Shown one piece after another: positions 10,264-64,000 of a stretch of 64,000 nucleotides of DNA (its first letter is position 1; the number at the start of each line of letters is the position of its first letter). Origin of the DNA: Nitrosopumilus sp. (lineage in GTDB: Archaea; Thermoproteota; Nitrososphaeria; Nitrososphaerales; Nitrosopumilaceae); the NCBI GenBank assembly GCA_963662625.1, contig OY759726.1, positions 1,184,001 through 1,248,000 of the forward strand, in the 5' to 3' direction. Under the pieces are notes generated by a model. The model searched no databases. It was not told the DNA's origin and was given only the letters and a program-made list of their open reading frames with translations. The translations under genes were made by a program, and so were the position numbers.

Positions 10264-10293
10264 CCTAATAGTCTGTTGCCTAATAGTCTGTTG
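10264..10293. repeat. 15-bp tandem duplication CCTAATAGTCTGTTG x2
   Basis: Exact copies at 10264-10278 and 10279-10293, directly at the IS110 left junction. Confidence 0.95.
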
Positions 10294-10329
10294 AACACAT
10301 GATAACCACCCAGGCGTAGTTGCCCCGAT

Positions 10330-10443: not shown

Positions 10444-10473
10444 CAGACATCCGAAAGGAGGTGATAGGAAAGG

Positions 10474-11565: not shown

Positions 11566-11609
11566 CCCCCCGCGCTGCCCGCATCCCGGATCGTCTTGCC
11601 AGCGCTAGC

Positions 11610-11616
11610 TATAAAT
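11610..11616 (+). promoter_or_regulatory. Outward-facing TATA box in the IS110 right end
   Basis: TATAAAT in an otherwise GC-rich end; predicted TSS about 11638. Confidence 0.5.
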
Positions 11617-11768
11617 CTCATGCCATGCAACCCAGTCACGGATCGGAAAAACCGCGGGATGCATTGCGGCAACTACGCCTGAGTGGTTAACATAGGTGCA
11701 CAACTGCCAGAAATTGCCGGGTCTAAACAGTTGAACCCCCGGCCCAACCATGTCAAACCGAAAAGGCC

Positions 11769-12911: not shown

Positions 12912-13019
12912 GGACTCCAAGCGGCACGGCCTGGCCACGGCCCGGGGATCGTGCCGAGTTGTGCAACAGACTAATGCCTAAGCATGGTTTTTATCGGGGT
13001 AACTGAGAATTTTGGTCAC

Positions 13020-27647: not shown

Positions 27648-27656
27648 GTGGGCGCC

Positions 27657-45940: not shown

Positions 45941-46217
45941 CTAGCGCCCCCTCCCGGGCACCTTCCAGTTCCCGTCTACCACGCACGCGTCGCACTTTCT
46001 CTTCCCCATGCCTGTCCCAATGCTTGTCTTTCTCATCCTCTCCTGTCACCTCCTTTCGGATGCCTGGCGGGCCGGAAGCTGCACACGCCCACCAGGGCGC
46101 GAAGCCCAGTCACACGGCAGCCCGGATTGTCCCATTCAACAGAAAGGGCGCATGCCCACACCGTACAAGGGGCCGGTCCATCGGGGCAACTACGCCTGGG
46201 TGGTTATCATGTGTTCA
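45941..46217 (-). mobile_element. Truncated relic of the same IS110 family (left end + 31 codons of transposase)
   Basis: Reverse complement aligns with 10292-10565; reads MRKTSIGTGMGKRKCDACVVDGNWKVPGRGR*, with the catalytic Asp changed to Gly. Confidence 0.95.
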
Positions 46218-46260
46218 AGATGGTCCAATATTTAACACAGTAACTACGCCAACAGGGCCG

Positions 46261-47028
46261 TCACCGCAGCCCCCACCTGGCCATCACCTTGTTCTCCAGC
46301 CTCGCGAACACGACGCCGTCGACGATCAGGCCGATTCCCATTATGACCAGCATTATCGCGATCACCTGCGAGACGTCGTTCAGGGAGCGGCCGGCATGCA
46401 GCAGGAAGCCCAGCCCCAGGTAGGAGAACAGCAGTTCGGCGCCGATGACCCCCCTCCACGCGAAGGCCCACCCCTGCTTGAAGCCCGAGATCATGTACGG
46501 GAACGCGGCGGGGATCAGCACGCTGGTTACGAGCTGCCCCCCCCTCGCGCCCATGTTCCGCGCGGCCTCGATATAGTCCGGATCGATGTTCTTGACTCCC
46601 GTGTACGTGTTGATCGTCACCGCGAATATGGCCCCTATCGCCACGACGAAGACTATCCCCACGTCGCCGAACCCGAACCAGAGGATCGCAAGCGGCACCC
46701 ACGCTATCGACGGGATCGACTGGAGCCCGAGGACCATGGAGCCGATGGTCTGGTTGACGACCTCCACCCTGGCCATGAAGATTCCCATCACCATGCCCCC
46801 GGCGATGGCCACCGCCAGCCCTAGCGAGAGGCGCCACATGCTGGTCGCCATGCCGTAGAACAGGCTCCCGTCCGCGGCGCTGTATGCCAGGTCCTCTGCC
46901 ACCTCGTACGGGGACGGGAAGATGTTGCTGGGCCAGACCCCGGATGCCGCAACGGCCTGCCAGACGGCGATTATCCCCACGTAGAACGCGATCCTCTTTG
47001 CCGTGTAGTTCTTTGCCACGCCGCTCAC
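46261..47028 (-). CDS. ABC transporter permease (SsuC/TauC/NitT family)
   Basis: IPSIAWVP and YIEAARNMGA EAA motif. Confidence 0.93.
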   Translation of the reverse strand: MSGVAKNYTAKRIAFYVGIIAVWQAVAASGVWPSNIFPSPYEVAEDLAYSAADGSLFYGMATSMWRLSLGLAVAIAGGMVMGIFMARVEVVNQTIGSMVLGLQSIPSIAWVPLAILWFGFGDVGIVFVVAIGAIFAVTINTYTGVKNIDPDYIEAARNMGARGGQLVTSVLIPAAFPYMISGFKQGWAFAWRGVIGAELLFSYLGLGFLLHAGRSLNDVSQVIAIMLVIMGIGLIVDGVVFARLENKVMARWGLR

Positions 47029-47789
47029 CCAGGGTTCTTCTTGACCTCGGGCCTCAGCTCGGCCAGGATGTCCTGCTGGAACTGCAGGAGCGACTCGTCC
47101 TCGGTGACCCTGGGCCTGGGAAAGTCGTTCTCGAACTCTTTCTTTATCACCGACGGCCTGTTGCTGAAGATCGCGACCTTGGTCCCTAGGACCGCCGCCT
47201 CGGCTACGTTGTGCGTCACGAACAGGATGGTCTTCTTGGTCTTCTCCCAGATCAGTTGCATCTCCACCAGCAGCAGGTCGCGCGTCTGCGCGTCCAGCGC
47301 CGCAAACGGCTCGTCCATGAGCAGCATCTCGGGATCCATCACGAGGGCGCGGGCGATGGCGACGCGCTGCTTCATCCCTGTGGACAGCTGGTACGTGTAA
47401 GAGTCGGCGAACTTCGTCAGCTGCATCATGTCCAGGTACCTGCCCGATATCTTCGCGCGTTCCTCCCTCGGGATGCCTGCCATCTTCAGCCCGAACTCGA
47501 CGTTGTCTTGCACCTTAAGCCACGGAAACAGCGCGCCCTCCTGGAACACCATTATCCTCTCGGGGCCCGTGCCCGACACGGGGCGGCCGTCGAAGATTAT
47601 CTCCCCCTCGTCGTGTGTATCCAGCCCGGCCACTATGCGCAGGAACGTCGACTTTCCGCACCCGGACGGGCCTACCAGGCACACGAAGTCGCCCGAATCC
47701 ACCATGAGGTTGACCCCTCCCAGCGCCTTCAGCCTGTGGGCGTCGTGGCTGAAGTACTTTACGATGTTCCTTGCCTCCAGCTTCGCCAA
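47025..47789 (-). CDS. ABC transporter ATP-binding protein (SsuB/TauB family)
   Basis: GPSGCGKST, LSTGMKQR and LLMDEPF motifs. Confidence 0.95.
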   Translation of the reverse strand: MAKLEARNIVKYFSHDAHRLKALGGVNLMVDSGDFVCLVGPSGCGKSTFLRIVAGLDTHDEGEIIFDGRPVSGTGPERIMVFQEGALFPWLKVQDNVEFGLKMAGIPREERAKISGRYLDMMQLTKFADSYTYQLSTGMKQRVAIARALVMDPEMLLMDEPFAALDAQTRDLLLVEMQLIWEKTKKTILFVTHNVAEAAVLGTKVAIFSNRPSVIKKEFENDFPRPRVTEDESLLQFQQDILAELRPEVKKNPG

Positions 47790-48812
47790 TCACGTGCCCT
47801 CCGCGCCCGGCTCCGGGCCCGCGTCGTAAAAGATCCCGGCCAGGTCGTAGCCGTTCCTCCCGAGGTAGCCCAGCGAATCGGCGCGCTCGGCAAAGATGTA
47901 CACGGAGCCCCTGATCGGGTCGGGGGTGATCTCCAGGTTGGACATGGCGGTGTCCACCACCTGATCCGGCAGGGCCTGCCCGTACGTGTCGGCCAGGAAC
48001 CGGTTGAATATGTCCCTTGTCTCCTCCGGGTTCTGGTTGACCCACCGCGCCGTCCGCTCGTGGGACAGCAGCAGGTCCCTTATGACCCCCGGGTTTTCCT
48101 CGGCGTATTCCACGTTCCCGATCAGTAGCACGGACGCAAACTGCCCGCCGGGCCAGAGATCCTCCTCGTAGAACAGCCTGGTCCCGCCTAGGTCGGCCTC
48201 CAGTATGGTGGCCCACGGTTCCGCGACCCACGCGCCGTCGATCTCGCCCTTGACAAACAGGGTGTATATGTCGGGATTCGGCAGGTTGTACACCGTCACG
48301 CTGCCGCCCCTTTCGGCCGGCCTCATCCCGTTCTCGCCCAGATAATGCCGCAGGGACACGTCCTGGGTGTTTCCTATCTGCGGCGCCGCGATCCTCTTTC
48401 CGGGAAAGTCCGAGGTCTCCGCGATGTCGGCGTCCGGGTGTATGACGAAGCTCGCGCCGCCGCTCGCGGCTCCAGACAGTATCCTGATGCTGTTCCCCTC
48501 CGAGTTCAGAAAGCCGTTGATTGCCGGCCCGGGGCCGACGTATGCCACGTCCACCGCGTCTGCGAACAGCGACTCGATCACCTGGGGCCCGCTGTCGAAC
48601 ACCCTGGTCTCGATGACGGTCTCGGGCCCGATCTGGTCCGCGAAGAAGCCCTTCTCGACGCCGACGATCGGTATGGTGTGCCCGATGTTGGGAAAGTACG
48701 CTATCCTGAGGCGATCATCGCCACCCTGGCCGTCGGCCGACACCAGTATGGCCGCGGCTGCCGAGATTATCATGCCAGCCCCGGCCATGGTTGCCACCGC
48801 CCGCCTATTCAT
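47790..48812 (-). CDS. ABC transporter substrate-binding protein (SsuA-like)
   Basis: YFPNIGH, YVGPGPA, GNTQDV and WVAEPW motifs; N-terminal signal/anchor. Confidence 0.9.
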   Translation of the reverse strand: MNRRAVATMAGAGMIISAAAAILVSADGQGGDDRLRIAYFPNIGHTIPIVGVEKGFFADQIGPETVIETRVFDSGPQVIESLFADAVDVAYVGPGPAINGFLNSEGNSIRILSGAASGGASFVIHPDADIAETSDFPGKRIAAPQIGNTQDVSLRHYLGENGMRPAERGGSVTVYNLPNPDIYTLFVKGEIDGAWVAEPWATILEADLGGTRLFYEEDLWPGGQFASVLLIGNVEYAEENPGVIRDLLLSHERTARWVNQNPEETRDIFNRFLADTYGQALPDQVVDTAMSNLEITPDPIRGSVYIFAERADSLGYLGRNGYDLAGIFYDAGPEPGAEGT

Positions 48813-48930
48813 ACAACAGTGTTATATGTCGGGCCGTTAAATAATCATCGAATTTTAGCTCAAGCTAGCTAATCTGCCACGCGTAATCCGCCGGGCCGCC
48901 TGCCTTCCCGGGCGCGCGCTGCTTCCGGCA

Positions 48931-48990
48931 CCGGGATCCTGCCCGGCGCCCCGCGGGACCGGGATCCTGCCCGGCGCCCCGCGGGACCGG
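48931..48990. repeat. Intergenic 28-bp tandem duplication
   Basis: CCGGGATCCTGCCCGGCGCCCCGCGGGA x2 plus CCGG. Confidence 0.9.
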
Positions 48991-49100
48991 ACGCGGCCCA
49001 CCCCGGAACTGCACGTGCCGGGGCGGCCACGCGGCCGGCCGGGAGACGGGGCGGCGTATCACAAGAGATAAATTCGAAAATGCGACGGAGAATATGTTTT

Positions 49101-50300
49101 ATGACCCAAAAAGGCATTCTGGCGTTTTCAGGAGGGCTGGACACGTCAGTCGTCGTCAAATACCTCCAGGAAGAACACGACATGGACGTCATCACGGTGA
49201 CGGTGGACGTGGGCCAGGGGGACGATCGCGGGAAGATCGCCTCAAAGGCAAAGCGGCTCGGCGTAAGGAAGCACTACGACATAGACGCGCGGGAGGAGTT
49301 CGCGAGGGACTACATCATCCCGTCAATCAAGGCGAACGCCCTCTACCAGAAGAAGTACTGCCTTGCGACCGCCCTTGCGCGGCCGTTGATAGCCGAAAAA
49401 GTCCTCGAGATCGCAAGAAAGGAGCGGGTCACGTCGCTTGCGCACGGCTGCTCCGGAAAGGGAAACGACCAGGTGCGGTTCGACATAACGCTGCGTTCGG
49501 GCTCCAGCCTGCCGATCATCGCCCCGATAAGGGACAAGAACCTGGACCGGGTCACCGAGCTGGAGTTCGCAAAGAGGCACGGGATCAAGATCGACACCGT
49601 GGCAAAAAAATTCAGCATCGACCAGAACCTGTGGGGGCGCGCGATCGAGGGAGGGGTCCTCGAGGATCCGTACTCGGAGCCCCCGGAGGACGCGTTTGCC
49701 TGGGTGAGGACGAAGAACCTGCCGGAGCGCCCGGCGTACGTGGAGATCGAGTTCGAGGGGGGAGCCCCGGTGGCGGTGGACGGGAGGCCGCTGGACCCGG
49801 TGAGCCTGGTCGAGCACCTCAACAAGAGGGCCGGGGCCGCCGGGGTGGGCATCGTCGACCACATCGAGGACCGGGTGGTCGGGATAAAGTCGCGGGAGGT
49901 GTACGAGACGCCCGCGGCGGTATGCCTCATCGAGGCCCACGCGGATCTCGAGAAGATGGTGCACACCAAGCACCAGAACAAGTTCAAGTCGATCGTCGAC
50001 GACGAGTGGGCGTACCTGGTATACTCGGGGCTGTGGCAGGATCCGCTGAAGCGGGACCTGGACGGCCTCATCGAGTCCTCCCAGGCCCGGGTGTCGGGGA
50101 AGGTGAGGCTCAGGCTCCACAAGGGGGGCCTCCGGGTCGTGGGAAGGATGTCCGGCAACTCCCTGTACAGCCGCGAGGTGGCCACCTACGGGACGGAGTC
50201 CACGTTTGACCAGCGGCTGGCCAAGGGCTTCGTGGAACTGTGGGGAATGCAGTCAACAGAAGCTAATAAATTACAAAAGAAAAGGTCAACAAGAACATGA
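49101..50300 (+). CDS. argG: Argininosuccinate synthase
   Basis: AFSGGLDTS, HGCSGKGNDQVRF and KSREVYE motifs. Confidence 0.97.
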   Translation: MTQKGILAFSGGLDTSVVVKYLQEEHDMDVITVTVDVGQGDDRGKIASKAKRLGVRKHYDIDAREEFARDYIIPSIKANALYQKKYCLATALARPLIAEKVLEIARKERVTSLAHGCSGKGNDQVRFDITLRSGSSLPIIAPIRDKNLDRVTELEFAKRHGIKIDTVAKKFSIDQNLWGRAIEGGVLEDPYSEPPEDAFAWVRTKNLPERPAYVEIEFEGGAPVAVDGRPLDPVSLVEHLNKRAGAAGVGIVDHIEDRVVGIKSREVYETPAAVCLIEAHADLEKMVHTKHQNKFKSIVDDEWAYLVYSGLWQDPLKRDLDGLIESSQARVSGKVRLRLHKGGLRVVGRMSGNSLYSREVATYGTESTFDQRLAKGFVELWGMQSTEANKLQKKRSTRT

Positions 50301-50464
50301 ACTGCCCAGAATGTGACGCGACCCTGAACGTCCCAGACGATGCCTCCGTAGGGGAGATAATCTCCTGCCCTGACTGCGGCGCCGACTTTGAGATCGCAAA
50401 AAAAGACGGATCCGACGTCGAACTAAAGCAGGCAGAAAGCGTAGGCGAAGACTGGGGAGAGTAA
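50297..50464 (+). CDS. lysW: Amino-group carrier protein LysW/ArgW (canonical EDWGE), not in ORF track
   Basis: MNCPECDATLNVPDDASVGEIISCPDCGADFEIAKKDGSDVELKQAESVGEDWGE*. Confidence 0.96.
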   Translation: MNCPECDATLNVPDDASVGEIISCPDCGADFEIAKKDGSDVELKQAESVGEDWGE

Positions 50465-51321
50465 TGCCGAGGCTCTCCATCGTGTTTGACCGCCTCAGGG
50501 CGGAAGAGAAGATGCTCCAAAAGGAGGCCGCCGGCATGGGGCTGGACACGGAGATGCTGGACGCAAAGACGGCCCGCGTCGACACGGACAGCAAAAAGGA
50601 GGACCTCGGGCTGGGGGACGTGGCGCTGGAGAGGTGCGTCAGCTACTTCCGCGGCCTCCACTTCACCTCGTGCCTGGAGTTCATGGGGGTCCCGGTCCTG
50701 AACACGTTCCGCGTGGCCAGCGCCTGCGGGAACAAGATGTTCATGACGCTGCTCCTGAAAAAACACAACGTCCCGACCCCGAGGACGTACTTCTCGTTCT
50801 CGCGCCAGGGCGCCGAGGAGTGCATCAGGGAGGCCGGCTACCCGCTCGTGATAAAGCCGGTCATAGGAAGCTGGGGGCGCGGGGTAGTCAACCTGAAGGA
50901 CAGGGACACGGCAGACGCCATCTTCGAGATCAGGGACGTCACGGACAGCCCGCACGACCGGATCTACTACCTGCAGGAACTGGTCGACAGGCCCCCGAGG
51001 GACATACGCGTGATCACCGTCGGCGACGAGCCGGTGGCCGCCATGTACAGGATGTCCCAGGGCGGCTTCAAGACCAACATCGCCCTGGGGGCCGATCCAG
51101 AGCCGTGCGAGATCACGAAAGAGGTGGAGGACCTGGCGTCCAGGGCCTCGAGGGCAGTGGGCGGGGGCATCCTGGGGATCGACATGATGGAGGACAGGGA
51201 CCGGGGGCTGGTGGTCCACGAGGTGAACAACACGGTGGAGTTCAAGGGGCTGTCAAGGGTGGCCGCGCGGAACATCCCTGGGGAGATGGTCAGGTTCGCG
51301 CTGGACCACGCTAGGAAATAA
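50464..51321 (+). CDS. lysX: LysW ligase, ATP-grasp (ArgX/LysX family), copy 1
   Basis: KPVIGSWGR, PPRDIR and HEVNNTVEF motifs; directly follows lysW. Confidence 0.92.
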   Translation: MPRLSIVFDRLRAEEKMLQKEAAGMGLDTEMLDAKTARVDTDSKKEDLGLGDVALERCVSYFRGLHFTSCLEFMGVPVLNTFRVASACGNKMFMTLLLKKHNVPTPRTYFSFSRQGAEECIREAGYPLVIKPVIGSWGRGVVNLKDRDTADAIFEIRDVTDSPHDRIYYLQELVDRPPRDIRVITVGDEPVAAMYRMSQGGFKTNIALGADPEPCEITKEVEDLASRASRAVGGGILGIDMMEDRDRGLVVHEVNNTVEFKGLSRVAARNIPGEMVRFALDHARK

Positions 51322-51349
51322 ATTATACTCCGTGGCGAGGAGGTTTATC

Positions 51350-52396
51350 ATGAAGATAGGGGTCGTCGGCGCGTCTGGATACGTGGGGGGCGAGACGCTG
51401 CGCCTGTTGGTGAACCACCCGGGGGTGGAGATCGCGATGGTGACGTCGAGGCAGCACGTGGGGGAGTACCTGCACAGGGCGCAGCCGAGCCTGAAGGGGT
51501 TCACGGACCTCACCTTTTCCGAGCTGGACTATGACAGGATGTCCGACAAGTGCGACATCGTGTTCACCGCGGTGCCGCACGGCACGTCTACCGAGATAGT
51601 AAAGGCGCTGTACGACCGGGGGCTCAAGGTGATCGACCTCAGCGCCGACTACAGGCTGCACGCTCCGGAGGACTATGACAGGTGGTACGGCTGGGAGCAC
51701 CCGCACCCGGACTACCTGCCCAAGTCGGTCTTCGGCATCCCGGAACTGCACCGCGAGGAGATAAGGAAGGCGCAGCTGGTCTCCTGCCCGGGCTGCATGG
51801 CGGTAACGTCGATACTGGCAATCGCGCCGCTCGTAAGGAACGACATCATAGACACGGATCACATAGTGGTCGACTCCAAGATCGGGTCGTCCGGGGCCGG
51901 CTCGGGTTCCGGGACGGCGCACGCCATGAGGGCGGGGGTGATCAGGCCGTACAAGCCCGCCAAGCACAGGCACACGGGCGAGATCGAGCAGGAACTGAGC
52001 GAGGCCGCGGGGAGGAAGATCCGCGTCTCGATGAGCCCGCACGCGGTGGACGTCGTGCGCGGGATCCTGTGCACCAACCACACGTTCATGAAGAGGGACG
52101 TCGACGAGAAGGAGCTGTGGAAGCTGTACCGCCAGGCGTACGGCGGGGAGGCGTTCGTGCGGCTGATACGCGACAAGAAGGGGCTGTACAAGTTCCCGGA
52201 TCCCAAGTTCCTGGTCGGATCCAACTTCTGCGACATAGGCTTCGACCTGGACGAGGACAACCACAGGCTGATCGCGCTCTCCGCGTCCGACAACCTGATG
52301 AAGGGGGCCGCCGGCTCCGCCATCCAGAACATGAACGTCATGTGCGGGTTTGACGAAATGGACGGGCTCAGGTACACCCCGCTCACCCCGGTATAG
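51350..52396 (+). CDS. lysY: [LysW]-aminoadipyl/glutamyl-phosphate reductase (ArgC/LysY)
   Basis: GASGYVG, DLSADYRL, PGC and DNLMKGAAG motifs. Confidence 0.95.
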   Translation: MKIGVVGASGYVGGETLRLLVNHPGVEIAMVTSRQHVGEYLHRAQPSLKGFTDLTFSELDYDRMSDKCDIVFTAVPHGTSTEIVKALYDRGLKVIDLSADYRLHAPEDYDRWYGWEHPHPDYLPKSVFGIPELHREEIRKAQLVSCPGCMAVTSILAIAPLVRNDIIDTDHIVVDSKIGSSGAGSGSGTAHAMRAGVIRPYKPAKHRHTGEIEQELSEAAGRKIRVSMSPHAVDVVRGILCTNHTFMKRDVDEKELWKLYRQAYGGEAFVRLIRDKKGLYKFPDPKFLVGSNFCDIGFDLDEDNHRLIALSASDNLMKGAAGSAIQNMNVMCGFDEMDGLRYTPLTPV

Positions 52397-52398
52397 CC

Positions 52399-53202
52399 AT
52401 GATCACGATCAAGATCGGCGGAAGCGTCGTGGACGACCTGCACCCGTCGTTCATCCCGGACGTCAAGAGGGCCGCCGAGCGCGAGGGGCTCGTGCTGGTC
52501 CACGGCGGCGGCAAGGAGGTGACCAAGGTCTGCGGGCAACTGGGAAAGGAGCCGCGGTTCGTCACGTCGCCAAGCGGCATCAGGAGCAGGTACACGGACA
52601 AGGAGACCGCGGAGATCTTCACGATGGTGATGTCCGGCAGGGTGAACAAGGCCATAGTCAGGATGCTGCAGGGGAGCGGGATCGACGCGATCGGCCTCTC
52701 GGGCGTGGACGCCAGGGTGATCCGGGCGGACAGGAAAAAAAGGCTGCTCATCGTAAACGAGAAGGGGAGGAAGCAGGCCATCGACGGCGGGTACACCGGG
52801 AAGATCACCGGGATAAACTCGGGGCTCATCAGGTCCCTGCTGGGGCAGGGGCTGACCCCCGTCATATCGCCGATCGCGCTAAGCGAGGAGTGCGACTTCC
52901 TGAACGTGGACGGGGACCGGGCCGCGGCATACGTGGCAGGCGGCGTGGGGGCGGACAGGGTGATCTTCATCACTGACGTCGACGGGCTGCTGGTGGACGA
53001 CAGGCTCGTCCCGCGGCTGACGCTGGCCGGGGCGAGGGAGATGCGGCCGAAGATCGGCCCCGGGATGGAAAAAAAGATCCTCGCCTCCACCGAGGCGCTG
53101 GACATGGGGGTCGGGGAGGCGCTGATCGCCAACGGGCAGAGGGAAAACCCCATATCCTCGGCGCTCGCACACGAGTCATGCACGGTGATCCGGGATGAGT
53201 GA
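52399..53202 (+). CDS. lysZ: [LysW]-aminoadipate/glutamate kinase (ArgB/LysZ)
   Basis: KIGGS, VHGGG and NVDGDRAA motifs. Confidence 0.95.
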   Translation: MITIKIGGSVVDDLHPSFIPDVKRAAEREGLVLVHGGGKEVTKVCGQLGKEPRFVTSPSGIRSRYTDKETAEIFTMVMSGRVNKAIVRMLQGSGIDAIGLSGVDARVIRADRKKRLLIVNEKGRKQAIDGGYTGKITGINSGLIRSLLGQGLTPVISPIALSEECDFLNVDGDRAAAYVAGGVGADRVIFITDVDGLLVDDRLVPRLTLAGAREMRPKIGPGMEKKILASTEALDMGVGEALIANGQRENPISSALAHESCTVIRDE

Positions 53203-54370
53203 AGACAGGTACATGGGGAACCTGTACCAGAGGTTCCCCGTCACCGTGGAGAGGGGGGAGGGCGCCCGCGTGTGGGACGCCGACGGCAGGGAGTACATCG
53301 ACTGCATGGGGGGGTACGGCGTGGCCCTCGTGGGGCACCGGAACGCCAGGGTCAGGGACGCGATAAAGGGGCAGGCCGACAAGATCATCACCGTCCACAG
53401 CTCGCTGTACAACAAGACGAGGGAGGAGTTCCTGGAGGTCCTGATCGGCCTCGCGCCGCCCGGGCTGACCCAGGTCCACCTCAACAACAGCGGCGCCGAG
53501 GCGGTGGAGGCGGCCATAAAGTTCGCGAGGAAGTTCACCGGGAAGAAGGGGATGGTGGCCATGAAGGGCTCCTACCACGGCAAGTCGCTCGGGGCCCTGT
53601 CCGTCACGTTCAACCCCAAGTACCGGAAGGCCTTCGAGCCGCTCGTGGAGCGGGTCACCTACGCGCCGTTTGGCGACATCGACGCGCTGCGCGAGGCGGT
53701 CGACGGGGACACCGCGTTCGTGATCCTCGAGCCGATCCAGGGGGAGAGCGGCATCAACGTGGCGCCCGACGGGTTCCTGCAACAGGTGAGGGGGCTCTGC
53801 GACGAAAAGGGCATACTGCTGATCTTCGACGAGATCCAGGCGGGGCTGGGCCGGACGGGGCGGATGTGGGCGTGCGAGCACTGGAACGCGTTCCCCGACA
53901 TCCTGTGCCTGGCCAAGGGGATAGCGGGGGGCGTCCCGATGGGCGCGACGCTGGTGCGGCCGGACATACTCGCCGCGATGGCCAAGGGGGAGCACTCGTC
54001 GACGTTCGGCGGGAACCCTCTGTCGTGCGCCGCCGGGACGGCCGCGCTCAGGGCGTTGACCGAGGACGGCCTGGTCGAGAACTCCGAAAGGATGGGGAGG
54101 CTCTTCCGGGAGGGGCTGGAGGGGCTGAGGGAGAGGCACCCGATAATCCGGGAGGTCCGGGGCAAGGGCCTGATGATAGGGGTGGAGCTCAGGTTCGACG
54201 TCAGGGAGATCCTGATGGCGCTGATCAGGGAGGGAGTCCTGATGCTGTACTCCGGCAGGAACATCCTGCGGATCCTGCCGCCGCTGGTAATAACCGGGGA
54301 GGAGGTTGCAAAAGTTTTACAAACCCTTGATTCCGTACTTACAGCGGAGGAGCGGAAGAGGAATGCATAA
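53195..54370 (+). CDS. lysJ: [LysW]-semialdehyde transaminase (ArgD/LysJ)
   Basis: DEIQAGLGRTG, LAKG and STFGGNPL motifs. Confidence 0.95.
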   Translation: MSEDRYMGNLYQRFPVTVERGEGARVWDADGREYIDCMGGYGVALVGHRNARVRDAIKGQADKIITVHSSLYNKTREEFLEVLIGLAPPGLTQVHLNNSGAEAVEAAIKFARKFTGKKGMVAMKGSYHGKSLGALSVTFNPKYRKAFEPLVERVTYAPFGDIDALREAVDGDTAFVILEPIQGESGINVAPDGFLQQVRGLCDEKGILLIFDEIQAGLGRTGRMWACEHWNAFPDILCLAKGIAGGVPMGATLVRPDILAAMAKGEHSSTFGGNPLSCAAGTAALRALTEDGLVENSERMGRLFREGLEGLRERHPIIREVRGKGLMIGVELRFDVREILMALIREGVLMLYSGRNILRILPPLVITGEEVAKVLQTLDSVLTAEERKRNA

Positions 54371-54782
54371 GGACAAGACCGACGCCAAGATAATAGCCTA
54401 CCTGAAGGACAACTCCAGGGAGTCCTTCGTGGACATCGGGAAGAGCCTGGGCCTGTCCGAGTCGGCCATACGGAGGAGGGTGAAGAACCTGACGGAGAAC
54501 GGGACGATCAAGAGGTTCACCGTCGAGATCAGCGAGGAGGAGGCCACCAGCGCAATCGTCCTGATCTCGGTGGACTCTGCGACGGACACGGCGAAGGTCT
54601 CGCTGAAGCTCGCAAAGCTGGAGAGGGTGAAGACCGTCTACGAGATAACGGGCCAGTACGACATCACCACGATAATCAGCGCGCCGAGCATATCGGGGAT
54701 CAACTCGTGCATCGACGCGCTCAGGAAGATCCCGGGAGTGATGGACACCAACACGGTGATAATACTGAGGAAGATCGCCTAG
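54363..54782 (+). CDS. lysM: Lrp/AsnC-family regulator LysM
   Basis: HTH LGLSESAIRRRV and YEITGQYDI; located in the lys cluster. Confidence 0.9.
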   Translation: MHKDKTDAKIIAYLKDNSRESFVDIGKSLGLSESAIRRRVKNLTENGTIKRFTVEISEEEATSAIVLISVDSATDTAKVSLKLAKLERVKTVYEITGQYDITTIISAPSISGINSCIDALRKIPGVMDTNTVIILRKIA

Positions 54783-54899
54783 GGCTGGATCTCGTCCGGG
54801 ATCCGCCAGAATGGCCCGGATCGGGATCAGCGGCGGCATTTTCCAGCGATGTTAGTACGAATATGTTTATATTCCCAATTATTTATAACGAATTCTGTA

Positions 54900-56066
54900 A
54901 TGAAGGATCCGAATCACTATGCGAACCTCTACAACGCCTACGACAGGAACCCTGCGAGGATACGCGTGCTGGACAGCACCCTGAGGGAGGGTGAGCAGCA
55001 CCCGGGGGTGTCGTTTACCAACAAGCAGCGTATACAGATAGCGTGGATGCTGGACTATTTCGGCGTGGACCAGATCGAGATCTCCCCGGTCATATCGAGC
55101 GACCACAGGGAGGCCACCAAGACGATAATCAAGCAGGGGCTGACGGCCGACATCGTGTCCCACGGGAGGGCGCTCAGGGAGGACATCGACGTGTCCCTGG
55201 CATGCGACGCGCGGTGGTGCGCGGCGTACCTGGGGGTCTCGGACATACACCTGCGCGACAAGCTCCGCATCACGCGGGAGCAGGCGCTGGAGAGGGCCGT
55301 CCGGACGGTGGAATACGCAAAGTCCCACGGGCTGAAGATCCGGTTCACGGTGGAGGACGGCAGCAGGGCCGACCCGGAGTTCCTGCTGGAGGTGTGCCGG
55401 GCGATCGAGGCCGCCGGCGTGGACAGGATCAGCCTTCCAGACACGATAGGCATCCTGCGCCCGGTCGGGATGCGCAACTTTGTCAAGCTGGTGAGGGGCG
55501 CGGTAGGCGTCCCGCTCGACGCGCACGTGCACAACGACATGGGGTTCGCGCTGGCAAACGCCTTCTCGGCGTGCGACGCGGGGGTGGACCAGATACACAC
55601 CACCATAGACGGGATCGGCGAGAGGACCGGGATCCCGCCGCTGGCCGAGGTCGCGGTGGCGCTGACCTACCTCTACAAGTCCCCCAACGACTTCAGGCTG
55701 GACATGCTGCTGGACCTGTCGAGGCTGATCGAGGAGTACACCTCCATAGCGCCGTACGACTCCAAGCCGATCGTGGGCGCGTCGGCCTACAAGCACAAGG
55801 CAGGCACGCACCTCGCTGCCATACTCAGGAACCCGGCCGCGTACGAGCCCATACCCCCCAGGGCGGTGGGAAACCGGCGCAGGATAGTGTTCGGGGAGCT
55901 CGCCGGCAAGACCGGGGCCGCGTACCTCATGTCGCTGCTGGGCCTCGGGAGGGACGAGGCGCAGGCAAGGGACGTCGCGCTGGGGCTGAAGAGGCTGAGG
56001 ATGGGGGACCTGATCGAGATCCCGCTGGAGAACGCGCTTGAAAAAAAGATAATTAATGACAAATAA
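54900..56066 (+). CDS. Homocitrate synthase-like (LeuA/DRE-TIM family)
   Basis: DSTLREGEQ, HVHND, GIGERTG and HKAGTH motifs; lys cluster context. Confidence 0.88.
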   Translation: MKDPNHYANLYNAYDRNPARIRVLDSTLREGEQHPGVSFTNKQRIQIAWMLDYFGVDQIEISPVISSDHREATKTIIKQGLTADIVSHGRALREDIDVSLACDARWCAAYLGVSDIHLRDKLRITREQALERAVRTVEYAKSHGLKIRFTVEDGSRADPEFLLEVCRAIEAAGVDRISLPDTIGILRPVGMRNFVKLVRGAVGVPLDAHVHNDMGFALANAFSACDAGVDQIHTTIDGIGERTGIPPLAEVAVALTYLYKSPNDFRLDMLLDLSRLIEEYTSIAPYDSKPIVGASAYKHKAGTHLAAILRNPAAYEPIPPRAVGNRRRIVFGELAGKTGAAYLMSLLGLGRDEAQARDVALGLKRLRMGDLIEIPLENALEKKIINDK

Positions 56067-56089
56067 GGAGGAAAGGGGGATGGAAAGAC

Positions 56090-56257
56090 ATGACCAAATG
56101 CGATGAATGCGACGCGGACATCCCCGTTCCGGCCGACGCGCTGGAGGGGGAGATCGTGACGTGCCCCGAATGCGGCGCCAGCTTCGAGCTGGCAAAGGGC
56201 CAGGACGGCTTCGCACTAAAGCCCGCCCAGACGGTCGGCGAGGACTGGGGGCAGTGA
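56090..56257 (+). CDS. lysW: Second LysW-like carrier protein ending EDWGQ, not in ORF track
   Basis: MTKCDECDADIPVPADALEGEIVTCPECGASFELAKGQDGFALKPAQTVGEDWGQ*. Confidence 0.95.
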   Translation: MTKCDECDADIPVPADALEGEIVTCPECGASFELAKGQDGFALKPAQTVGEDWGQ

Positions 56258-57099
56258 GTCCTGACGTCACCGTCCTCTACGATACAATCCGCTGGGAAGA
56301 AAAGGCGCTGCTAGAAGCGGGAAGAAAGAACGGCGTCAGCGTCAGGATGGTGGACTGCAAGAAACTGTCGCTGGATCTGGAGGGGAATCCCGGGGATTAC
56401 GGGGTGGTGATCCAGCGGTGCGTGAGCTACTACAGGAACCTGCACTCGACGGCCGCGCTGGAGGGGATGGGCGTAGACGTGATCAACTGCCTCGACACGG
56501 GGATCTTCGCGGGAAACAAGCTGTTCACGCACATGCTGCTCAAGAAGGCGGGAGTCCCGACGCCGCGCGCCACGGTCGCGTTCTCCAAGGACGCCGCGCT
56601 GGAGGCGCTGGACTGCCAGGGATACCCCCGGGTGATCAAGCCCACCGTGGGAAGCTGGGGGAGGATGGTCTCCAAGCTGAACGACAGGGACTCGGCCGAG
56701 GGGATAATGGAGGGCAGGGAGTCCATGTACCCGATATACCGGGTCCACTACCTGGAGGAGTTCGTCAAGAGGCCCCCCCGGGACATCCGGGCGATCGTGG
56801 TGGGGGACAGGATCGTGGCGGCGATATACAGGTCGTCTGCGGACGGCAGCTGGAAGACCAACATGGCGCTGGGAGGCACCGCGCAGGAATGCAAGGTGAC
56901 CCCCGAGATGGAGGAGATCTGCATCAGGGCGAAAAAAGCGGTCCGGGGGGAGATCGTGGGGGTGGACCTGATGGAGAGCGAGGATGGGGGGCTGGTAGTC
57001 CACGAGGTGAACAATACCACTGAATACAAGAACACGGTCAGGGTGTGCGGGGTCGACATCCCGTCGCTGATGCTCGACCATGCGAGATCGGCAAGGTAG
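56254..57099 (+). CDS. lysX: LysW ligase, ATP-grasp (LysX family), copy 2
   Basis: IRWEEK, KPTVGSWGR, WKTNMALG and HEVNNTTEY motifs; GTG start overlaps the lysW2 stop. Confidence 0.92.
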   Translation: MSPDVTVLYDTIRWEEKALLEAGRKNGVSVRMVDCKKLSLDLEGNPGDYGVVIQRCVSYYRNLHSTAALEGMGVDVINCLDTGIFAGNKLFTHMLLKKAGVPTPRATVAFSKDAALEALDCQGYPRVIKPTVGSWGRMVSKLNDRDSAEGIMEGRESMYPIYRVHYLEEFVKRPPRDIRAIVVGDRIVAAIYRSSADGSWKTNMALGGTAQECKVTPEMEEICIRAKKAVRGEIVGVDLMESEDGGLVVHEVNNTTEYKNTVRVCGVDIPSLMLDHARSAR

Positions 57100-57101
57100 G
57101 A

Positions 57102-59266: not shown

Positions 59267-59292
59267 AGAGAGGGTGCCCCGCAGGGAGTGCC

Positions 59293-59910: not shown

Positions 59911-59917
59911 CCGCCGC

Positions 59918-60565: not shown

Positions 60566-60648
60566 GTCGCTACTCTGAATCTTGTAATATAACCTTTTGG
60601 TTGCCGCGCAGGCACGGCCGCCGGGCACGGGGCCCGGGGGCGCGGCGC

Positions 60649-61329
60649 CTAGGGATCGGGCCGGACCTCTATCAGGACCCTCGAACCGTCCTTCAGCCTG
60701 CCGGAATCCCTTATGCATGTCCCGGAGATCACCTCGATTATGGAGTCGTCGTGGTGCGTGCGTTCCAGGATCACCAGCTCGCCCCTGATGGACCCGTTCA
60801 CCGTGCAGCCAAAGCACTTTACCCACCCGTAGGTCCTCTTCCCGTCCGAGAAGCCGTTGATCCTGACTCCCTCCAAATTCCCGAGCTGCTTGATCGCGTC
60901 CCGGTGCAGCTTGCTTTCAAGCCTCACGTTGAGGGTTCCGGGGAACGGCACGTAGCCGATCTTGGACTTGAACTGCCTGGCGTACCCCCTGAGGGACATG
61001 TAGTAGGCGCCCTCGCCCATCCCGGAGACCAGCCTTCCCTCCAGTTCCACGCCGGACGTGGAACCCAGGCTCCTCTGGAGGACCGACGAGAGCTTCAGCA
61101 CCTCCGAGTGCCCCTTGGCGGTGACCCTGATCGAGACGTTCCTGCCGTCGATCGCCCTCTCCACGAACCTGCCGTTCTCCAGCTCCAGCAGGTGCCTTGA
61201 CGCCGCCTGCTGGGACTTTTTGATGCTCCTTCCGAGCTCGGCGGTGGTGACTGCGACAAAGTTGCGCCTTGCCCCCTTCGAGAGCAGGTGGGCGAGAGTT
61301 AGGATGTGCTGAATCTTTAGTTCAGTCAT
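60649..61329 (-). CDS. ribK: CTP-dependent riboflavin kinase with N-terminal HTH (RbkR-type)
   Basis: SQQAASR HTH; SGMGEG and PFPGTLNV motifs. Confidence 0.92.
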   Translation of the reverse strand: MTELKIQHILTLAHLLSKGARRNFVAVTTAELGRSIKKSQQAASRHLLELENGRFVERAIDGRNVSIRVTAKGHSEVLKLSSVLQRSLGSTSGVELEGRLVSGMGEGAYYMSLRGYARQFKSKIGYVPFPGTLNVRLESKLHRDAIKQLGNLEGVRINGFSDGKRTYGWVKCFGCTVNGSIRGELVILERTHHDDSIIEVISGTCIRDSGRLKDGSRVLIEVRPDP

Positions 61330-61336
61330 CTAGATC

Positions 61337-62479
61337 CTATGAAACGCCAAGGTCGCCGAACGTCTTCAGCTTCAACCCGTCCGAGTTGGACAGCTTTGCG
61401 ACCCTGTGGCCTATGACCACCTGGATCCCTGCCTTCTTGGCGCCCTCCAAGAGCCTCTGGGTGATTATGCCGTCCAGCAGGAGGTACTTGATCCCGGACT
61501 GGGTAGAGAGCTTGCTGACCACCTCGCTTATCGGGACCTTGAAGATCTCCTTCTGCTTGTCGTCAAGCGCGACCGCCTCGAGCGTCTCGTTCAGTTTCGG
61601 GTATATCTTCGAGACCATGTCTGCCATCGGCTTGTCGGACTCGTTTTTCAGCGTGGGCGCGGCCTTGCCGTGCTTGATCTCGTCGGCGACGGGCCTGAGG
61701 ATCTCGTCTATGCGTTTCGGGCTGAGCTCCTCCACCTCCATCCCGTTGTCCGCCCTAAGCTCGTAGTCGATCGGGACGACGGACCTGAGCTCCTTCAGGA
61801 TGAACCCGCCGGCGCGGTCGCCGTCGGTGAATGCCACCACGGTGTCCTTGGAATTGCACAGCTTCTTGATGGACTCGTCGATCTTCGCGCCCTCGATGGC
61901 AATCGAGTTGCCGTACCCTGCCCTAAGTAGGTTGATCACGTCGGCCCTCCCCTCGACCAGGATGATCCAGCCCGACTCCATCGCGCTCGGGCCGCAGGCC
62001 AGCTTGGACGGCCCGTACGCCGAGATCTTCCTGCCGTCCCCGGCATGTACGTCCTTCAGCATGCTCTCCCCCTCGCTGACGGTCTTTGTCGCCCAGCGTT
62101 GCTTGATCTCCTTTGCGCGCTTTACGATGTCGTCCTTCTTCGCGGCCCTGACGTCGTCGATCGAGTCGAGCTTGAAACTGCATTCGAACGGCCCGACCTT
62201 GTCGATGCTCTCTATGCCCGCGGCGATCAGCGCGCATGTGTCGATATCGGTGCTCATGGGGATGATCACGGCCCCGGAAGTCGTGTTGGAGGTGGTTCTG
62301 GAGGTTACCTCTATGCGGCCCACCTTGGACACGCGCTGCAGCTCGTTCAGGTTCATCTCCGGGCCCAGCAGTCCCTCTGTCTGGCCGAAGATTGCGCCGA
62401 TTATGTCTGCTCTTTCAACGAGCCCGTCAACTTCGTAGGAAAGCTTAACATGATACTTGACAATTCCCGATTGAGGCAT
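61337..62479 (-). CDS. dnaG: Archaeal DnaG (TOPRIM primase-like/exosome-associated)
   Basis: GAIFGQTEGLLG, VEGRADV and DGDRAG motifs. Confidence 0.96.
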   Translation of the reverse strand: MPQSGIVKYHVKLSYEVDGLVERADIIGAIFGQTEGLLGPEMNLNELQRVSKVGRIEVTSRTTSNTTSGAVIIPMSTDIDTCALIAAGIESIDKVGPFECSFKLDSIDDVRAAKKDDIVKRAKEIKQRWATKTVSEGESMLKDVHAGDGRKISAYGPSKLACGPSAMESGWIILVEGRADVINLLRAGYGNSIAIEGAKIDESIKKLCNSKDTVVAFTDGDRAGGFILKELRSVVPIDYELRADNGMEVEELSPKRIDEILRPVADEIKHGKAAPTLKNESDKPMADMVSKIYPKLNETLEAVALDDKQKEIFKVPISEVVSKLSTQSGIKYLLLDGIITQRLLEGAKKAGIQVVIGHRVAKLSNSDGLKLKTFGDLGVS

Positions 62480-62723
62480 AAATTATTCATCTCCTTAATT
62501 ATCATACAGTTCCATCTCAGTCTCTATATATGAGGGTATCGCAAGAAATGCCGCAAAAACCCCGAAAATTGCCCAAAATCGGGCGTTTTTTGGCCCGGCT
62601 GCCACGGCGCGCAGTCTATTGCTGGCCCGGTTTTCAGACAAAAAACAACCCGCAAAGGCAGATTTGGGCAGGGCTGTGCCACAGCCTGGCTGGGCGGGAC
62701 GGATTAAAAATGGGGGTTGTGGG

Positions 62724-63074
62724 TTACTCGGTGCTAAACGAGTGGCCGCACGAGCAGGACTTTACGACGTTCGGGTTGTTGATCTTGAACCCCGAGCCCA
62801 TGAGGCTCTCGATATAGTCCACGTTTGCACCTTTCAGGTGATCCACGCTGTAGCTGTCTACCAGGAGCTTGACCCCGTTCTCCTCCATGACTAGGTCGTC
62901 CTCTTCGGCCGCCTTCTCAAAGCCCATTCCGTAGGACAGGCCCGAACACCCGCCGCCCTGGACGTATACGCGCAGGTACTCGGGTTTCTCGGCTTCATCC
63001 TTCATGAACTCCTTGATCTTTTCGGCGGCCTTTGGCGTGACCGTGATCATCTTCTGGGTCTGTTCAGATGCCAT
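62724..63074 (-). CDS. erpA: A-type Fe-S carrier protein (ErpA/IscA/HesB)
   Basis: GGGCSG and CSCGHSF motifs. Confidence 0.95.
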   Translation of the reverse strand: MASEQTQKMITVTPKAAEKIKEFMKDEAEKPEYLRVYVQGGGCSGLSYGMGFEKAAEEDDLVMEENGVKLLVDSYSVDHLKGANVDYIESLMGSGFKINNPNVVKSCSCGHSFSTE

Positions 63075-63131
63075 ATTGACTAAGGCCGCGTTAAATTATA
63101 ATAACCTTTTTGTCAGCCCTCGCCCGTCAAT

Positions 63132-64000
63132 TGTAGGGAAAGTCGGTCCGCATCGGATCAAGAGGACGGTAGCCGGCCATTTTAGGCTGTACCGATCACG
63201 GAAGGCCATGACAGGAAGACTTGCTGAGGGGTCCCGGAAGTACCTGGTCAGGCAGCGAGAGAAGGGCGTGCCGTCATCCCAAGTGGCGCGGGATCTGGGA
63301 ATCGCCGCCAGGCACGTGCGGGGGCCGTGGGCGGGGTTCCCGGAGGCCGGAACGGCGGCGGCGGGGACGGGCAGGCCGCGCGCCTGCATGACCGCCGCCA
63401 TGATGCGGCTGGTCACCGGCGCCCACGGGAGGCGCCCTGCGGGCGTGGTGCGCACCGCGAGGCGCCCCAGGAGGGACCATGATACAAGCTGCCGCCCCGC
63501 ATGCCGGATACTGGAGAAGGCCGGGGCGGCGGCCGCGTCTGCCGCAAAACCGGGGAGGCGCGAGCGGGCGCGCCACGGGCGCAAATGCCCGGACGCCACG
63601 TGGCACGCCGGCTGGCACGGGACGAAGGACCCCCGGTTCAGGGGCCCCCGGCTGGTCGCGTACCCGGGCGGCGCCCCGCGGTGCGCGGTGGCCGCGCGCG
63701 TGCTCGCGCAGGCCACGCCGGGGAACGCCGTGCCGGCGCCCAGGGACGCGATCGGGCGGTTCGGCACGCCGGCCACCGTGCTCCCCGGCAACGGCCCGTG
63801 CTTCGTGGGCCGGAACGGACGCAGGAAGGCCCCTCCCCGGCCGTGGAAGCCCACCGCGTCCGGGGCGGAGCTGCCGGGCCTCGGGATCGAGCTCATAGAC
63901 GCCAGGCCGCACCGCCCCCAGACCAACGGGAAGGCCGGGAGGTTCTTCCGGAGCGCGGGGGACGGGACATGGCGCCACGGGAGCATGTCCGAGCACGTGG
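63132..64000 (+). pseudogene. Degenerate IS481-like (HTH + rve integrase core) transposase, running off the window end
   Basis: Frame from ATG 63208: VARDLGI HTH, WHAGW, VAYPGGAPR, VLPGNG and RPHRPQTNGKAGRFF, which are decayed WHTDW/YLDDASR/SDNG/PQTNGKxERF motifs; a possible TGT end at 63132 is tentative. Confidence 0.8.

Follow-up and report, generated by a model that had tools for sequence, protein, structure and literature searches.

Dead IS copies in a GC-rich Nitrosopumilus genome decay by one-way A:T>G:C transitions, often in TNNA>CNNG pairs, possibly through GC-biased mismatch correction

RIP of fungi introduces C:G>T:A transitions into repeats and makes stop codons. gBGC gives G/C alleles a one-way gain in sequences that pair with homologues, mimics selection and raises GC, and its action in bacteria is a topic in print. 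ADAR avoids a G at position -1, and diversity-generating retroelements change A to any base on one strand. At a T:G mismatch, endonucleases of the Vsr type nick the strand 5' of the T, from where a very short patch is repaired in the 5'>3' direction. Why GC content varies so much among prokaryotes has long been debated. As mutation is generally considered A:T-biased, a high GC content requires selection or biased conversion, and to our knowledge direct molecular footprints of a rise in GC are scarce.

The window, by which we mean the whole stretch of 64,000 nucleotides analysed here, contains an intact IS110-family element, a little-mutated IS5/IS4-like element that abuts it, and two degraded elements (Table 1). 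The intact element encodes a DEDD transposase that matches the Pfam families DEDD_Tnp_IS110 (6e-28) and Transposase_20 (6.5e-22) and carries the N-terminal GIDxGK motif of the family as GIDIGK, where the converted copies read GTGMGK. Over 274 aligned bases the IS110 relic differs from it by 29 substitutions, namely 18 A>G/T>C, 3 G>A/C>T and 8 transversions; the 18 agrees with the earlier note on this DNA, which had counted about 18 of 24 outside the variable loop. The rve-type copy lies in an open frame (63004-63999), and compared with the most A:T-rich copy of its family (genome 1674241-1675282) it shows 87 differences: 75 A:T>G:C transitions against 8 in the opposite direction, plus 4 changes of other kinds. 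Its protein changes are V>A, D>G, E>G, L>P, S>P and Y>H, much as the note had read them from a frame without stops, and according to our reading of the DDE positions the catalytic D, D and E all appear to have become G. In copies of the IS5/IS4-like element, A:T>G:C transitions, reverse transitions and other changes relative to the window reference stand at 53:7:12, 31:2:3 and 45:2:11. The pattern is present in at least six transposase families, the rve-type copy of the window included, and the one-way decay of dead IS copies is confirmed as real and stronger than first reported.

Table 1. Transposon features of the window (window coordinates)
Feature	Position	Strand	Remarks
Intact IS110-family element, reference copy	10284..11700	+	boundaries by genome BLAST, Pfam
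IS110 transposase ORF	10474-11565		363 aa
IS5/IS4-like element (DDE_Tnp_1), abuts IS110, little-mutated reference	11697..12973	+	ORF 11769-12911, Pfam
IS110 relic, 5' non-coding end and first ~40 codons	45946..46218	-	
rve-integrase IS (IS481/IS3-like), heavily converted copy	63126..64000	+	extends past the window to genome 1248167

Full-length IS110 copies were compared with the intact copy across the 1.86-Mb genome. A>G/T>C changes make up 44 of 44 differences in copy c720k (22 A>G and 22 T>C), 44 of 44 in c728k, 89 of 91 in c476k, 199 of 210 in c18k, 186 of 214 in c1508k, 96 of 126 in c1063k and 143 of 202 in c1699k. In this neutral DNA 95-100% of the differences are A:T>G:C transitions, the last three copies lying lower; GC climbs from 63.2% to 77.2% across the copies, and up to 38% of the A/T sites in IS copies have been converted. 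Even with the 80% expectation from GC3, 44 of 44 one-way changes has a p of about 5e-5, and chance is excluded as the cause. Dead IS110 copies retain open frames of 404-440 codons because A>G/T>C cannot turn a sense codon into a stop. With gBGC these copies share the one-way gain of G/C in sequences able to pair with homologues, but gBGC covers all weak-to-strong changes, whereas the IS copies show transitions only, with A>C/T>G nearly absent (0/44, 0/91 and 2/210 differences). Branches differ more than 100-fold in how many one-way hits they carry per ordinary change; the changes private to c1699k comprise about 20 A:T>G:C transitions against 19 in the opposite direction, and 20 G:C>A:T transversions.

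The direction of these changes was judged from 32 outgroup IS110 proteins by the residues they carry where a dead copy and the intact one differ in amino acid. For c720k the outgroups favour the intact residue at 38 of 39 such positions and the copy at none, with one tie; for c18k the votes are 153 for the intact copy, 4 for the dead copy and 2 ties, out of 159. The A>G/T>C direction that the note had assumed for the relics is thereby borne out, its refuting case, an intact copy that is itself derived and AT-shifted, is rejected, and on the evidence of these proteins the A:T-rich intact IS110 is the older state. The genome looks assembled from environmental samples, which is a point in favour of an assembly or base-calling artefact, or to A:T-rich "intact" copies derived by C>T/G>A damage, and it was cross-checked against contigs of public runs. 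We consider either explanation extremely unlikely. Besides the outgroup polarity, C>T/G>A damage would make stops, yet the A:T-rich copy has an intact catalytic protein; the differences are copy-specific and largely nested among copies, and are not tied to a genome-wide motif; and the single-copy genes at 44-64 kb of the window show 0 differences to contigs from three samples of one study.

The new result concerns the unit of decay: the elementary change is a concerted cross-strand pair, TNNA>CNNG, in which both bases change or neither does. A T>C change with an A>G change at the third base downstream was observed 11 times against 0.4 expected in c720k, 18 against 1.4 in c476k and 29 against 7.3 in c18k. 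The peak is sharp at lag 3, with lags 2 and 4 weaker and lag 1 depleted, and the IS110 copies have no excess of T..T or A..A. In a permutation that preserves site classes, the observed pair count was reached in 0 of 2000 shuffles for each of six copies. TSSA sites, counted as both/T only/A only/none, stand at 7/0/0/21, 13/1/0/13, 19/1/2/5, 9/0/0/9, 10/0/1/7 and 11/1/1/9 in six copies, the 10/0/1/7 being that of the rve-type copy of the window. ASST sites, by comparison, behave independently (e.g., 8/5/5/4 for both, either single and none). TNNA pairs also exceed expectation in the IS5/IS4-like family (10 against 0.7) and in the rve-type window copy (14 against 1.7). Hits in c720k prefer T (24/98) or C (13/133) at -3 over A (2/117) or G (5/171), which identifies CNNG as the product. 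A 4-bp pair of fixed polarity sets this unit apart from gBGC and points to one enzyme class rather than to a general repair bias. ADAR-type hyperediting and diversity-generating retroelements share with the IS copies clustered changes at adenines; here, however, both DNA strands are hit in fixed pairs and G at -1 is favoured at the changed adenines, unlike in ADAR-type editing, and A goes to G only, unlike in diversity-generating retroelements.

The pairs are a signature specific to repeat families. One DDE family has seven copies with 99.3-100% identity, and all differences within it amount to four TNNA>CNNG pairs, three copies having 1-3 pairs each and four having none. At 4 of 4 of the pair sites that vary among these young copies, the older copies are already CNNG, though hot spots would look alike. 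No such signature was found in the gene paralogues of this genome, at silent sites of its single-copy genes, or in the IS110 copies of four relatives (G001, G002, G008 and G016).

The whole genome has also become richer in GC. GC3 is 0.86 genome-wide, genomes of the same genus have a GC content of 40-42%, and orthologous DNA with 40-44% GC in two genomes of the same genus has 62-64% here. In 7.5 kb of such DNA, 1465 of 1823 differences have A/T in the relative and G/C in this genome, as against 168 in reverse, so the inverted genome-wide bias suggested in the earlier note gains support; 348 of the 1465 (24%) are transversions. These numbers, about 20 GC points above the same genus, would suit a plain genome-wide mutation bias, arising for instance from unrepaired adenine deamination or G:T replication errors and seen across every codon position only in sequences freed of selection, namely the dead IS copies. 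In addition, EndoV, NucS and MutS were not found in this genome, and in some small repeat families A:T>G:C changes prevail although pairs are rare or absent (85:27:26 and 35:4:17, both with 0 pairs, and 45:5:11 with 1). But the low-GC, same-genus genomes G001 and G002 likewise yielded no EndoV, NucS or MutS, so that lost repair of deaminated adenine or of mismatches, as the note had it, is not a sufficient cause. Independent single-site mutation, moreover, cannot yield both-or-none pairs or their polarity. GC3 predicts a ratio of about 4-5:1, against 44:0, 89:1 and 199:2 observed, with the near lack of A>C/T>G and the more than 100-fold variation among branches as further points against it. 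We regard plain mutation bias as an unlikely account.

The earlier note had also raised a RIP-like inactivation of mobile DNA. The IS copies recall RIP in being transposon copies full of one-way, gene-destroying transitions without indels, but the direction is opposite, frames remain open, and there is no sexual cycle here. RIP mutates every duplicate, whereas four copies of one DDE family are mutually identical and four copies of another family are 99.5-100% identical. As near-identical copies persist, the direction is reversed and neither a RID-like nor a deaminase candidate was found in this genome, RIP-like inactivation as such is not supported. A related proposal is a dimeric dsDNA enzyme that would turn two adenines, one on each strand at a spacing of 3 bp, into a G-pairing base, for instance by deamination to hypoxanthine or transglycosylase exchange, and that would in some way single out mobile DNA as an equivalent of RIP in prokaryotes. 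Such an enzyme would account for the both-or-none pairs, the sharp 3-bp spacing, the fixed polarity, the preference for an opposite-strand purine at -3 and the restriction to transitions. It would also suit the relic at genome 394347-395326, which holds 17 pairs although no full-length mutated donor is left, the only other mutated copy of its family being a 490-base fragment. TNNA pairs at silent sites of host genes show no depletion, so that any action of the enzyme would need to be confined to IS copies; the half-site depletion in single-copy genes described below is then left unexplained. Among 53 hits unique to one IS110 copy there is only 1 pair, though unique hits are biased to cold sites, and no targeting principle is evident, given the survival of 4-7 copies, 99.3-100% identical, in two families. 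No candidate adenine deaminase, whether TadA/ADAR-like or amidohydrolase and beyond housekeeping genes, was found with the PF00383 and PF00962 profiles and a zinc-motif scan of all frames, searches of limited sensitivity that are not exhaustive: PF00383 has one match, the sole CDA-fold protein, which by our reading of its motifs looks like a dCMP deaminase, PF00962 has none, and the scan gave no further credible deaminase. We judge the dimeric enzyme decidedly unlikely.

A candidate of another kind is present in the genome. Two intact Vsr genes match PF03852 at 71 and 66 bits (cut-off 27). The first can be aligned with the Vsr of E. coli (1CW0; E 1.7e-15), whose PDF and FWH stretches it conserves, and is part of a module of C5-methylase, HNH nuclease, ORF and Vsr, the methylase (PF00145, 3.6e-61) lying about 1 kb upstream with the HNH nuclease in between; beside the second, no methylase gene was seen. 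The genome has about five PF00145 C5-methylase loci. PMC2715241 describes overproduced Vsr as mutagenic and as promoting CTAGG>CCAGG, and PMC12907096 describes Neisseria Vsr enzymes that accept T:G in degenerate motifs. At lag 3, silent half-sites are depleted in the single-copy genes (T..G 0.74, C..A 0.80), whereas half-sites in reverse order (1.06, 1.07) and T..A (1.00) are not; among four genomes sampled the depletion is confined to this one. CTAG stands at 0.25 of expectation, and the ratio CAGG/(TAGG+CAGA), taken relative to its reverse-order control, is 2.5 in this genome as against 0.9-1.4 in three relatives. Together with the T-first polarity within 2-4 bases, half-site depletion and CTAG scarcity may be indirect footprints of nicking at T:G and patch resynthesis.

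The best reading, to which we give a likelihood a little short of even, is that GC-biased very-short-patch repair spreads CNNG alleles between copies. T:G mismatches would arise from replication errors and from heteroduplexes of diverged IS copies or genome copies, and every T:G would be resolved to C:G, so that G/C alleles win and A/T alleles lose at transition sites. A heteroduplex of an older, converted CNNG copy with a younger TNNA copy would contain a T:G mismatch whichever strands pair. The patch started at that T would cross the A:C mismatch three bases downstream, so that TNNA becomes CNNG as a unit, while ANNT pairs stay unlinked. Single-copy genes, which have no ectopic donors, would undergo only the completion of near-cognate half-sites at their silent sites, TNNG and CNNA both turning into CNNG, along with the general rise in GC3. 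We infer Vsr as the responsible enzyme, the heteroduplex between copies and the patch as the source of the pairing. In c18k, 66% of TNNA sites are converted against 40% of the one-step CNNA sites, a difference in keeping with inter-copy drive or with an enzyme that works as a dimer, and at odds with plain stepwise completion.

Vsr was not found in the four relatives whose IS110 copies are pair-free, which counts for a role of Vsr. Across 30 relatives plus this genome, all three Vsr-positive genomes are high in GC (0.59-0.63); it occurs in 0 of 18 sampled low-GC genomes (0.29-0.44). However, high GC is also seen where Vsr is lacking, in G008 (0.575) and in a 20-kb stretch of G003 (0.553), which counts against the Vsr reading. 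The Vsr-positive G014 (400 kb sampled) also speaks against it, its one diverged repeat pair having 70 differences and 0 TNNA>CNNG pairs; the sample of G027 has no repeats. Further points against Vsr are the lag-3 peak, since a plain patch predicts co-conversion at all distances up to patch length as well as T..T pairs, the 17-pair relic, most of whose pairs lack an extant donor, and the transversions in host genes, which Vsr does not explain.

With the VSP repair of E. coli (Vsr/Dcm) the genome shares a T:G endonuclease gene next to a C5 methylase, an outcome of T>C only, short, polar and context-dependent action, and depletion of near-cognate words including CTAG. It differs in that the host is an archaeon in which MutS/MutL were not detected, in that this footprint prevails in the decay of entire IS families, and in that concerted pairs occur in a loose motif and may accompany the GC rise. 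We found no published report of such an archaeal, IS-wide, paired Vsr footprint with a rise in GC.

Three linked observations meet here: a GC shift of about 20 points, a one-way neutral decay of IS copies, and a sharply defined event, TNNA>CNNG, for which there is a candidate enzyme open to expression and assay. The dead IS copies may record a GC-biased mismatch-correction drive and not a dedicated repeat mutator. It is rather unlikely, though conceivable, that acquired Vsr endonucleases in an archaeon without detected general mismatch repair act as a GC drive that took the genome from ~40% to 63% GC, and that old, converted relics "poison" young active copies by patchy very-short-patch conversion. 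If the link to Vsr is true, an accessory gene of restriction-modification would drive base composition and the inactivation of transposons; should the link not hold, the pair signature would indicate a new adenine-acting dsDNA enzyme, which would be of wide interest. The one-way decay of IS copies may in either case give a rare handle on genomes that become GC-rich. If the GC-drive reading is true, the transposon graveyard would be an accidental defence, and its footprints would show the direct molecular cause of a prokaryotic GC jump.

We confirm and extend the one-way A:T>G:C decay of IS copies in Nitrosopumilus sp. Its genome, a single contig of 1,858,698 bp with 63.4% GC, is IS-rich, and repeats of at least 150 bp cover 17.6% of it. 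The IS110 relic in the window differs from the intact IS110 by 29 substitutions: 18 A>G or T>C changes, which upholds the count of 18 in the earlier note, next to 3 reverse transitions and 8 transversions. Far more striking than this relic are the seven further full-length IS110 copies, which the genome carries together with several fragments. A>G or T>C changes relative to the intact copy (hereafter hits) make up all 44 differences in copies c720k (22 A>G, 22 T>C) and c728k, 89 of 91 in c476k, 199 of 210 in c18k, 186 of 214 in c1508k, 96 of 126 in c1063k and 143 of 202 in c1699k. The GC content, 63.2% at the low end, reaches 77.2% among the IS110 copies, whose stop-free frames are extended to 404-440 codons.

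Positions of the window, of its elements and arrays, and of the two Vsr loci
Feature	Position	Description
Window	genome 1184001-1248000
Intact IS110	window 10284-11700	363-aa DEDD transposase
Hit-poor 5' block of IS110	window 10291-10340	first ~40-50 bases
3' end of IS110 and its flank	window 11600-11800	place of the 104-base recurrent segment
IS110 relic	window 45946-46218	fragment, matched to intact IS110
rve-integrase IS	window 63126-64000	frame 63004-63999; Pfam
Tandem array	window 14029-14650	12/24-base unit, ~32 register copies, many identical
Tandem array	window 2544-2917	63-base unit, 5 copies
C5 methylase / HNH nuclease / 136-aa ORF / Vsr module	genome 1508948-1511296	outside window; adjoins IS110 copy c1508k
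Second Vsr	genome 1520947-1521519	edge of low-GC island, 0.32-0.46 GC

In the copies compared base by base with the intact one, the 5' block of IS110 is nearly free of hits, even in a copy with 199 of them in the body, and hits are also few over the last ~100 bases. Converted copies may still have been under selection for mobility. Downstream of this block, a different short loop sequence is common to the relic and c1699k. The 104 bases directly 3' of IS110 recur with 99-100% identity at 6 other loci and form the end of the IS5-like element. This suggests that IS110 has a fixed insertion place within that other IS. Target choice in IS110 elements is made by a guide RNA, and a fixed insertion place would fit this. 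The two tandem arrays of the window are probably repeats inside coding sequence.

The spectrum is not peculiar to IS110. In a self-comparison of the genome, with families assigned by Pfam, we counted A:T>G:C transitions, reverse transitions and other changes against the most A:T-rich copy of each family, a choice that determines which sign the comparison has but not how large the excess is. The rve-integrase IS of the window gives 75:8:4; by our reading of the alignment it has G at all three catalytic acidic residues, and its protein also shows L>P, S>P and Y>H. The IS5-like neighbour of IS110 (e.g., 53:7:12), a second DDE_Tnp_1 family (70:9:4), an IS66 family (63:22:34), a DDE_3 (IS630-like) family (95:16:15) and a family with HTH_33 and HTH_32 (101:12:20) behave likewise, as do two further repeat families without a Pfam-based name. 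Small repeat families with 2-3 loci give a mixed outcome and no clean comparison, since several of these are fragments of larger families. Repeated ordinary genes show symmetric transitions with transversions dominant (e.g., 48:39:110 and 138:60:384), and ten IS110 copy pairs in four related genomes show two-way differences, many transversions and 0-2 TNNA/CNNG pairs per comparison. The 400 kb sampled from each of three relatives yielded 3 repeat pairs in G014, none in G027 and 28, mostly tandem gene repeats, in G008.

The direction of change was assessed by inferring ancestral states from site patterns and from outgroup proteins, namely 32 IS110 transposases from other genomes that are 46-72% identical to the intact protein. 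Where c720k and the intact copy differ in amino acid (39 positions), the outgroups side with the intact residue 38 times and with the copy never, with one tie; at the 159 differences of c18k they favour the intact residue 153 times and the copy 4 times, with 2 ties. The N-terminal GIDIGK of the intact transposase reads GTGMGK in converted copies. The intact IS110 is therefore ancestral in state, and A:T has given way to G:C. The A>G/T>C direction claimed earlier is kept, and the case in which the intact copy would be the derived one is rejected; an artefact or a reversed polarity is a highly improbable explanation.

The hits are not independent of each other. A T>C change followed by an A>G change three bases downstream occurs 11 times in c720k (0.4 expected), 18 times in c476k (1.4 expected) and 29 times in c18k (7.3 expected). 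Hits were also permuted within classes of base, neighbour and codon phase; for each of 6 copies from 4 families, 0 of 2000 shuffles gave as many pairs as observed. Five other families show the same signature (10, 14, 17, 16 and 10 pairs observed vs 0.7, 1.7, 1.8, 2.8 and 2.1 expected). Pair counts in three gene-paralogue controls were 0-1. At a TSSA site the two bases change together or not at all (both/T only/A only/none: 7/0/0/21, 13/1/0/13, 19/1/2/5, 9/0/0/9, 10/0/1/7 and 11/1/1/9); the bases of the mirror arrangement, ASST, change independently (e.g., 8/5/5/4). In one DDE family, whose seven copies are 99.3-100% identical, the sole internal differences are four TNNA>CNNG pairs, with 1-3 pairs in each of three copies and none in the other four. 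A plain mutation bias, an explanation that we consider unlikely, fails on these pairs.

T..A pairs at a spacing of 2-4 account for 30 of the 44 hits in c720k. Sorted by the base at -3, hits fall on 24 of 98 sites with T at that position, 13 of 133 with C, 2 of 117 with A and 5 of 171 with G; therefore, the product is CNNG. Converted pair sites have a loose preference for G at -1 and for C at +1, that is, TCGA in a GTCGAC-like setting. Simple stepwise completion of the motif is rejected, as conversion is more frequent at TNNA than at CNNA sites. A search for helical or chromatin-scale periodicity of the hits found only a 3-base codon effect.

The hit sets of the IS110 copies are largely nested: 43 of the 44 hits in c720k recur in c476k, and 88 of the 89 in c476k recur in c18k. 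A reading by descent alone, in which the copies are successive ancestors on a pectinate tree, is rejected, since c720k carries no ordinary changes and c1699k carries 59, yet 39 of 44 hits are common to both. The nesting thus reflects either very strong hot spots or G/C alleles passing between copies. Changes private to the old copies show an ordinary spectrum. Hits unique to one copy are almost always singles, which favours neither model, as such hits are by selection those at cold sites. Four pair sites vary among the young copies of the DDE family, and at every one of them older relics of that family already have CNNG.

Contigs from public sequencing data, covering four runs of three samples in one study, agree without a single difference with the single-copy genes of window 44-64 kb. 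At IS copies most of the alternatives in these contigs are C>T and G>A, which is what less-converted sister copies aligned on converted ones would give. This evidence is not independent of the source of the assembly. Contig joints connect 59965 to 48897 (38 extra letters) in all four runs and 48739 to 56566 (13 extra letters) in three; they may reflect structural variation or, in other strains, related genes that contain repeats.

Three results indicate that the pair process spares single-copy genes: the genome as a whole has no deficit of TSSA (observed/expected 1.49, TSSA/ASST 1.15), silent T..A pairs one codon apart are undepleted in 974 non-repeat ORFs (ratio to longer lags 1.00), and in the comparison with same-genus orthologues T-first differences are no more numerous at lag 3 (100) than at lag 6 (101). 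These genes do bear a related mark, as half-sites at lag 3 are depleted in them (T..G 0.74, C..A 0.80) and undepleted in reverse order (1.06 and 1.07), a depletion found only in Nitrosopumilus sp. among four genomes sampled. The silent lag-3 pattern differs in 400 kb of G014, a Vsr-positive relative with 0.594 GC (T..A 0.67, A..T 0.78, C..G 1.11).

The shift in base composition within the genus is very large. GC1, GC2 and GC3 are 0.61, 0.46 and 0.86, and at orthologues of window 20001-39000 Nitrosopumilus sp. has 62-64% GC vs about 0.40-0.42 in the same-genus genomes G001 and G002, whose DNA is only 68-76% identical to it. Across 7.5 kb of orthologous DNA, 1465 of 1823 differences have A/T in the relative and G/C in Nitrosopumilus sp., and 168 are the reverse. 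The genome-wide bias suspected earlier is thus borne out.

Lost repair as a cause of such a bias, or else a RIP-like inactivation of mobile DNA (RIP being fungal repeat-induced point mutation), had been proposed. EndoV was not found in this genome or in either same-genus genome and is present in 13 of 30 relatives; NucS, also not found, is present in 6 of 30, none in the genus, and MutS, likewise not found, in 1 of 30. These losses are a shared background and no special feature of this genome. The earlier interpretation is partly right: the bias stands but is neither simply lost repair nor RIP. A dimeric enzyme that attacks adenines of double-stranded DNA appears slightly more doubtful than a plain mutation bias. 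No adenine deaminase candidate was found in the genome. The special feature is a pair of intact genes for Vsr, the T:G-mismatch endonuclease of very-short-patch (VSP) repair; Vsr occurs in 2 of 30 relatives (G014 and G027) and was not found in G001, G002, G008 or G016. The Vsr of the methylase module aligns to E. coli Vsr with core stretches kept, and the genome has about five C5-methylase loci. Classic VSP footprints are present: CTAG is scarce (observed/expected 0.25), and the excess of CAGG/CCTG over one-step neighbours is 2.5 times the reverse-order control (0.9-1.4 in three relatives). Passages of one study describe Vsr overproduction as mutagenic and as stimulating CTAGG>CCAGG (PMC2715241), and a passage of another describes T:G in degenerate motifs as accepted by Neisseria Vsr enzymes (PMC12907096).

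We put forward, tentatively but as a serious candidate, a Vsr-type short-patch T:G to C:G correction that would move TNNA/CNNG pairs as a unit. In a heteroduplex of converted and unconverted copies, a TNNA/CNNG site would give a T:G mismatch in either strand arrangement. If every T:G were resolved to C:G by a short patch running 5'>3' from the T, the pair would move as a unit because the patch would span the partner mismatch. ANNT pairs would not move in this way, single sites would move about half as well (24% vs 10% in c720k), and single-copy genes would undergo only the completion of near-cognate half-sites. Such correction leaves three features unexplained: the sharpness of the peak at 3 bp, the missing T..T pairs and the relic without a donor; what probability the explanations considered here leave falls to other causes. 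Our literature search returned no published account of IS copies that decay one way from A:T to G:C, of TNNA>CNNG pairs, or of a possible link of this signature to Vsr and the GC jump. A Vsr-type correction would account for the direction of change and its confinement to transitions, the polarity of the pairs and their restriction to repeat families, the depletion of half-sites in single-copy genes, and the restriction of the pattern to Nitrosopumilus sp. among the genomes examined.
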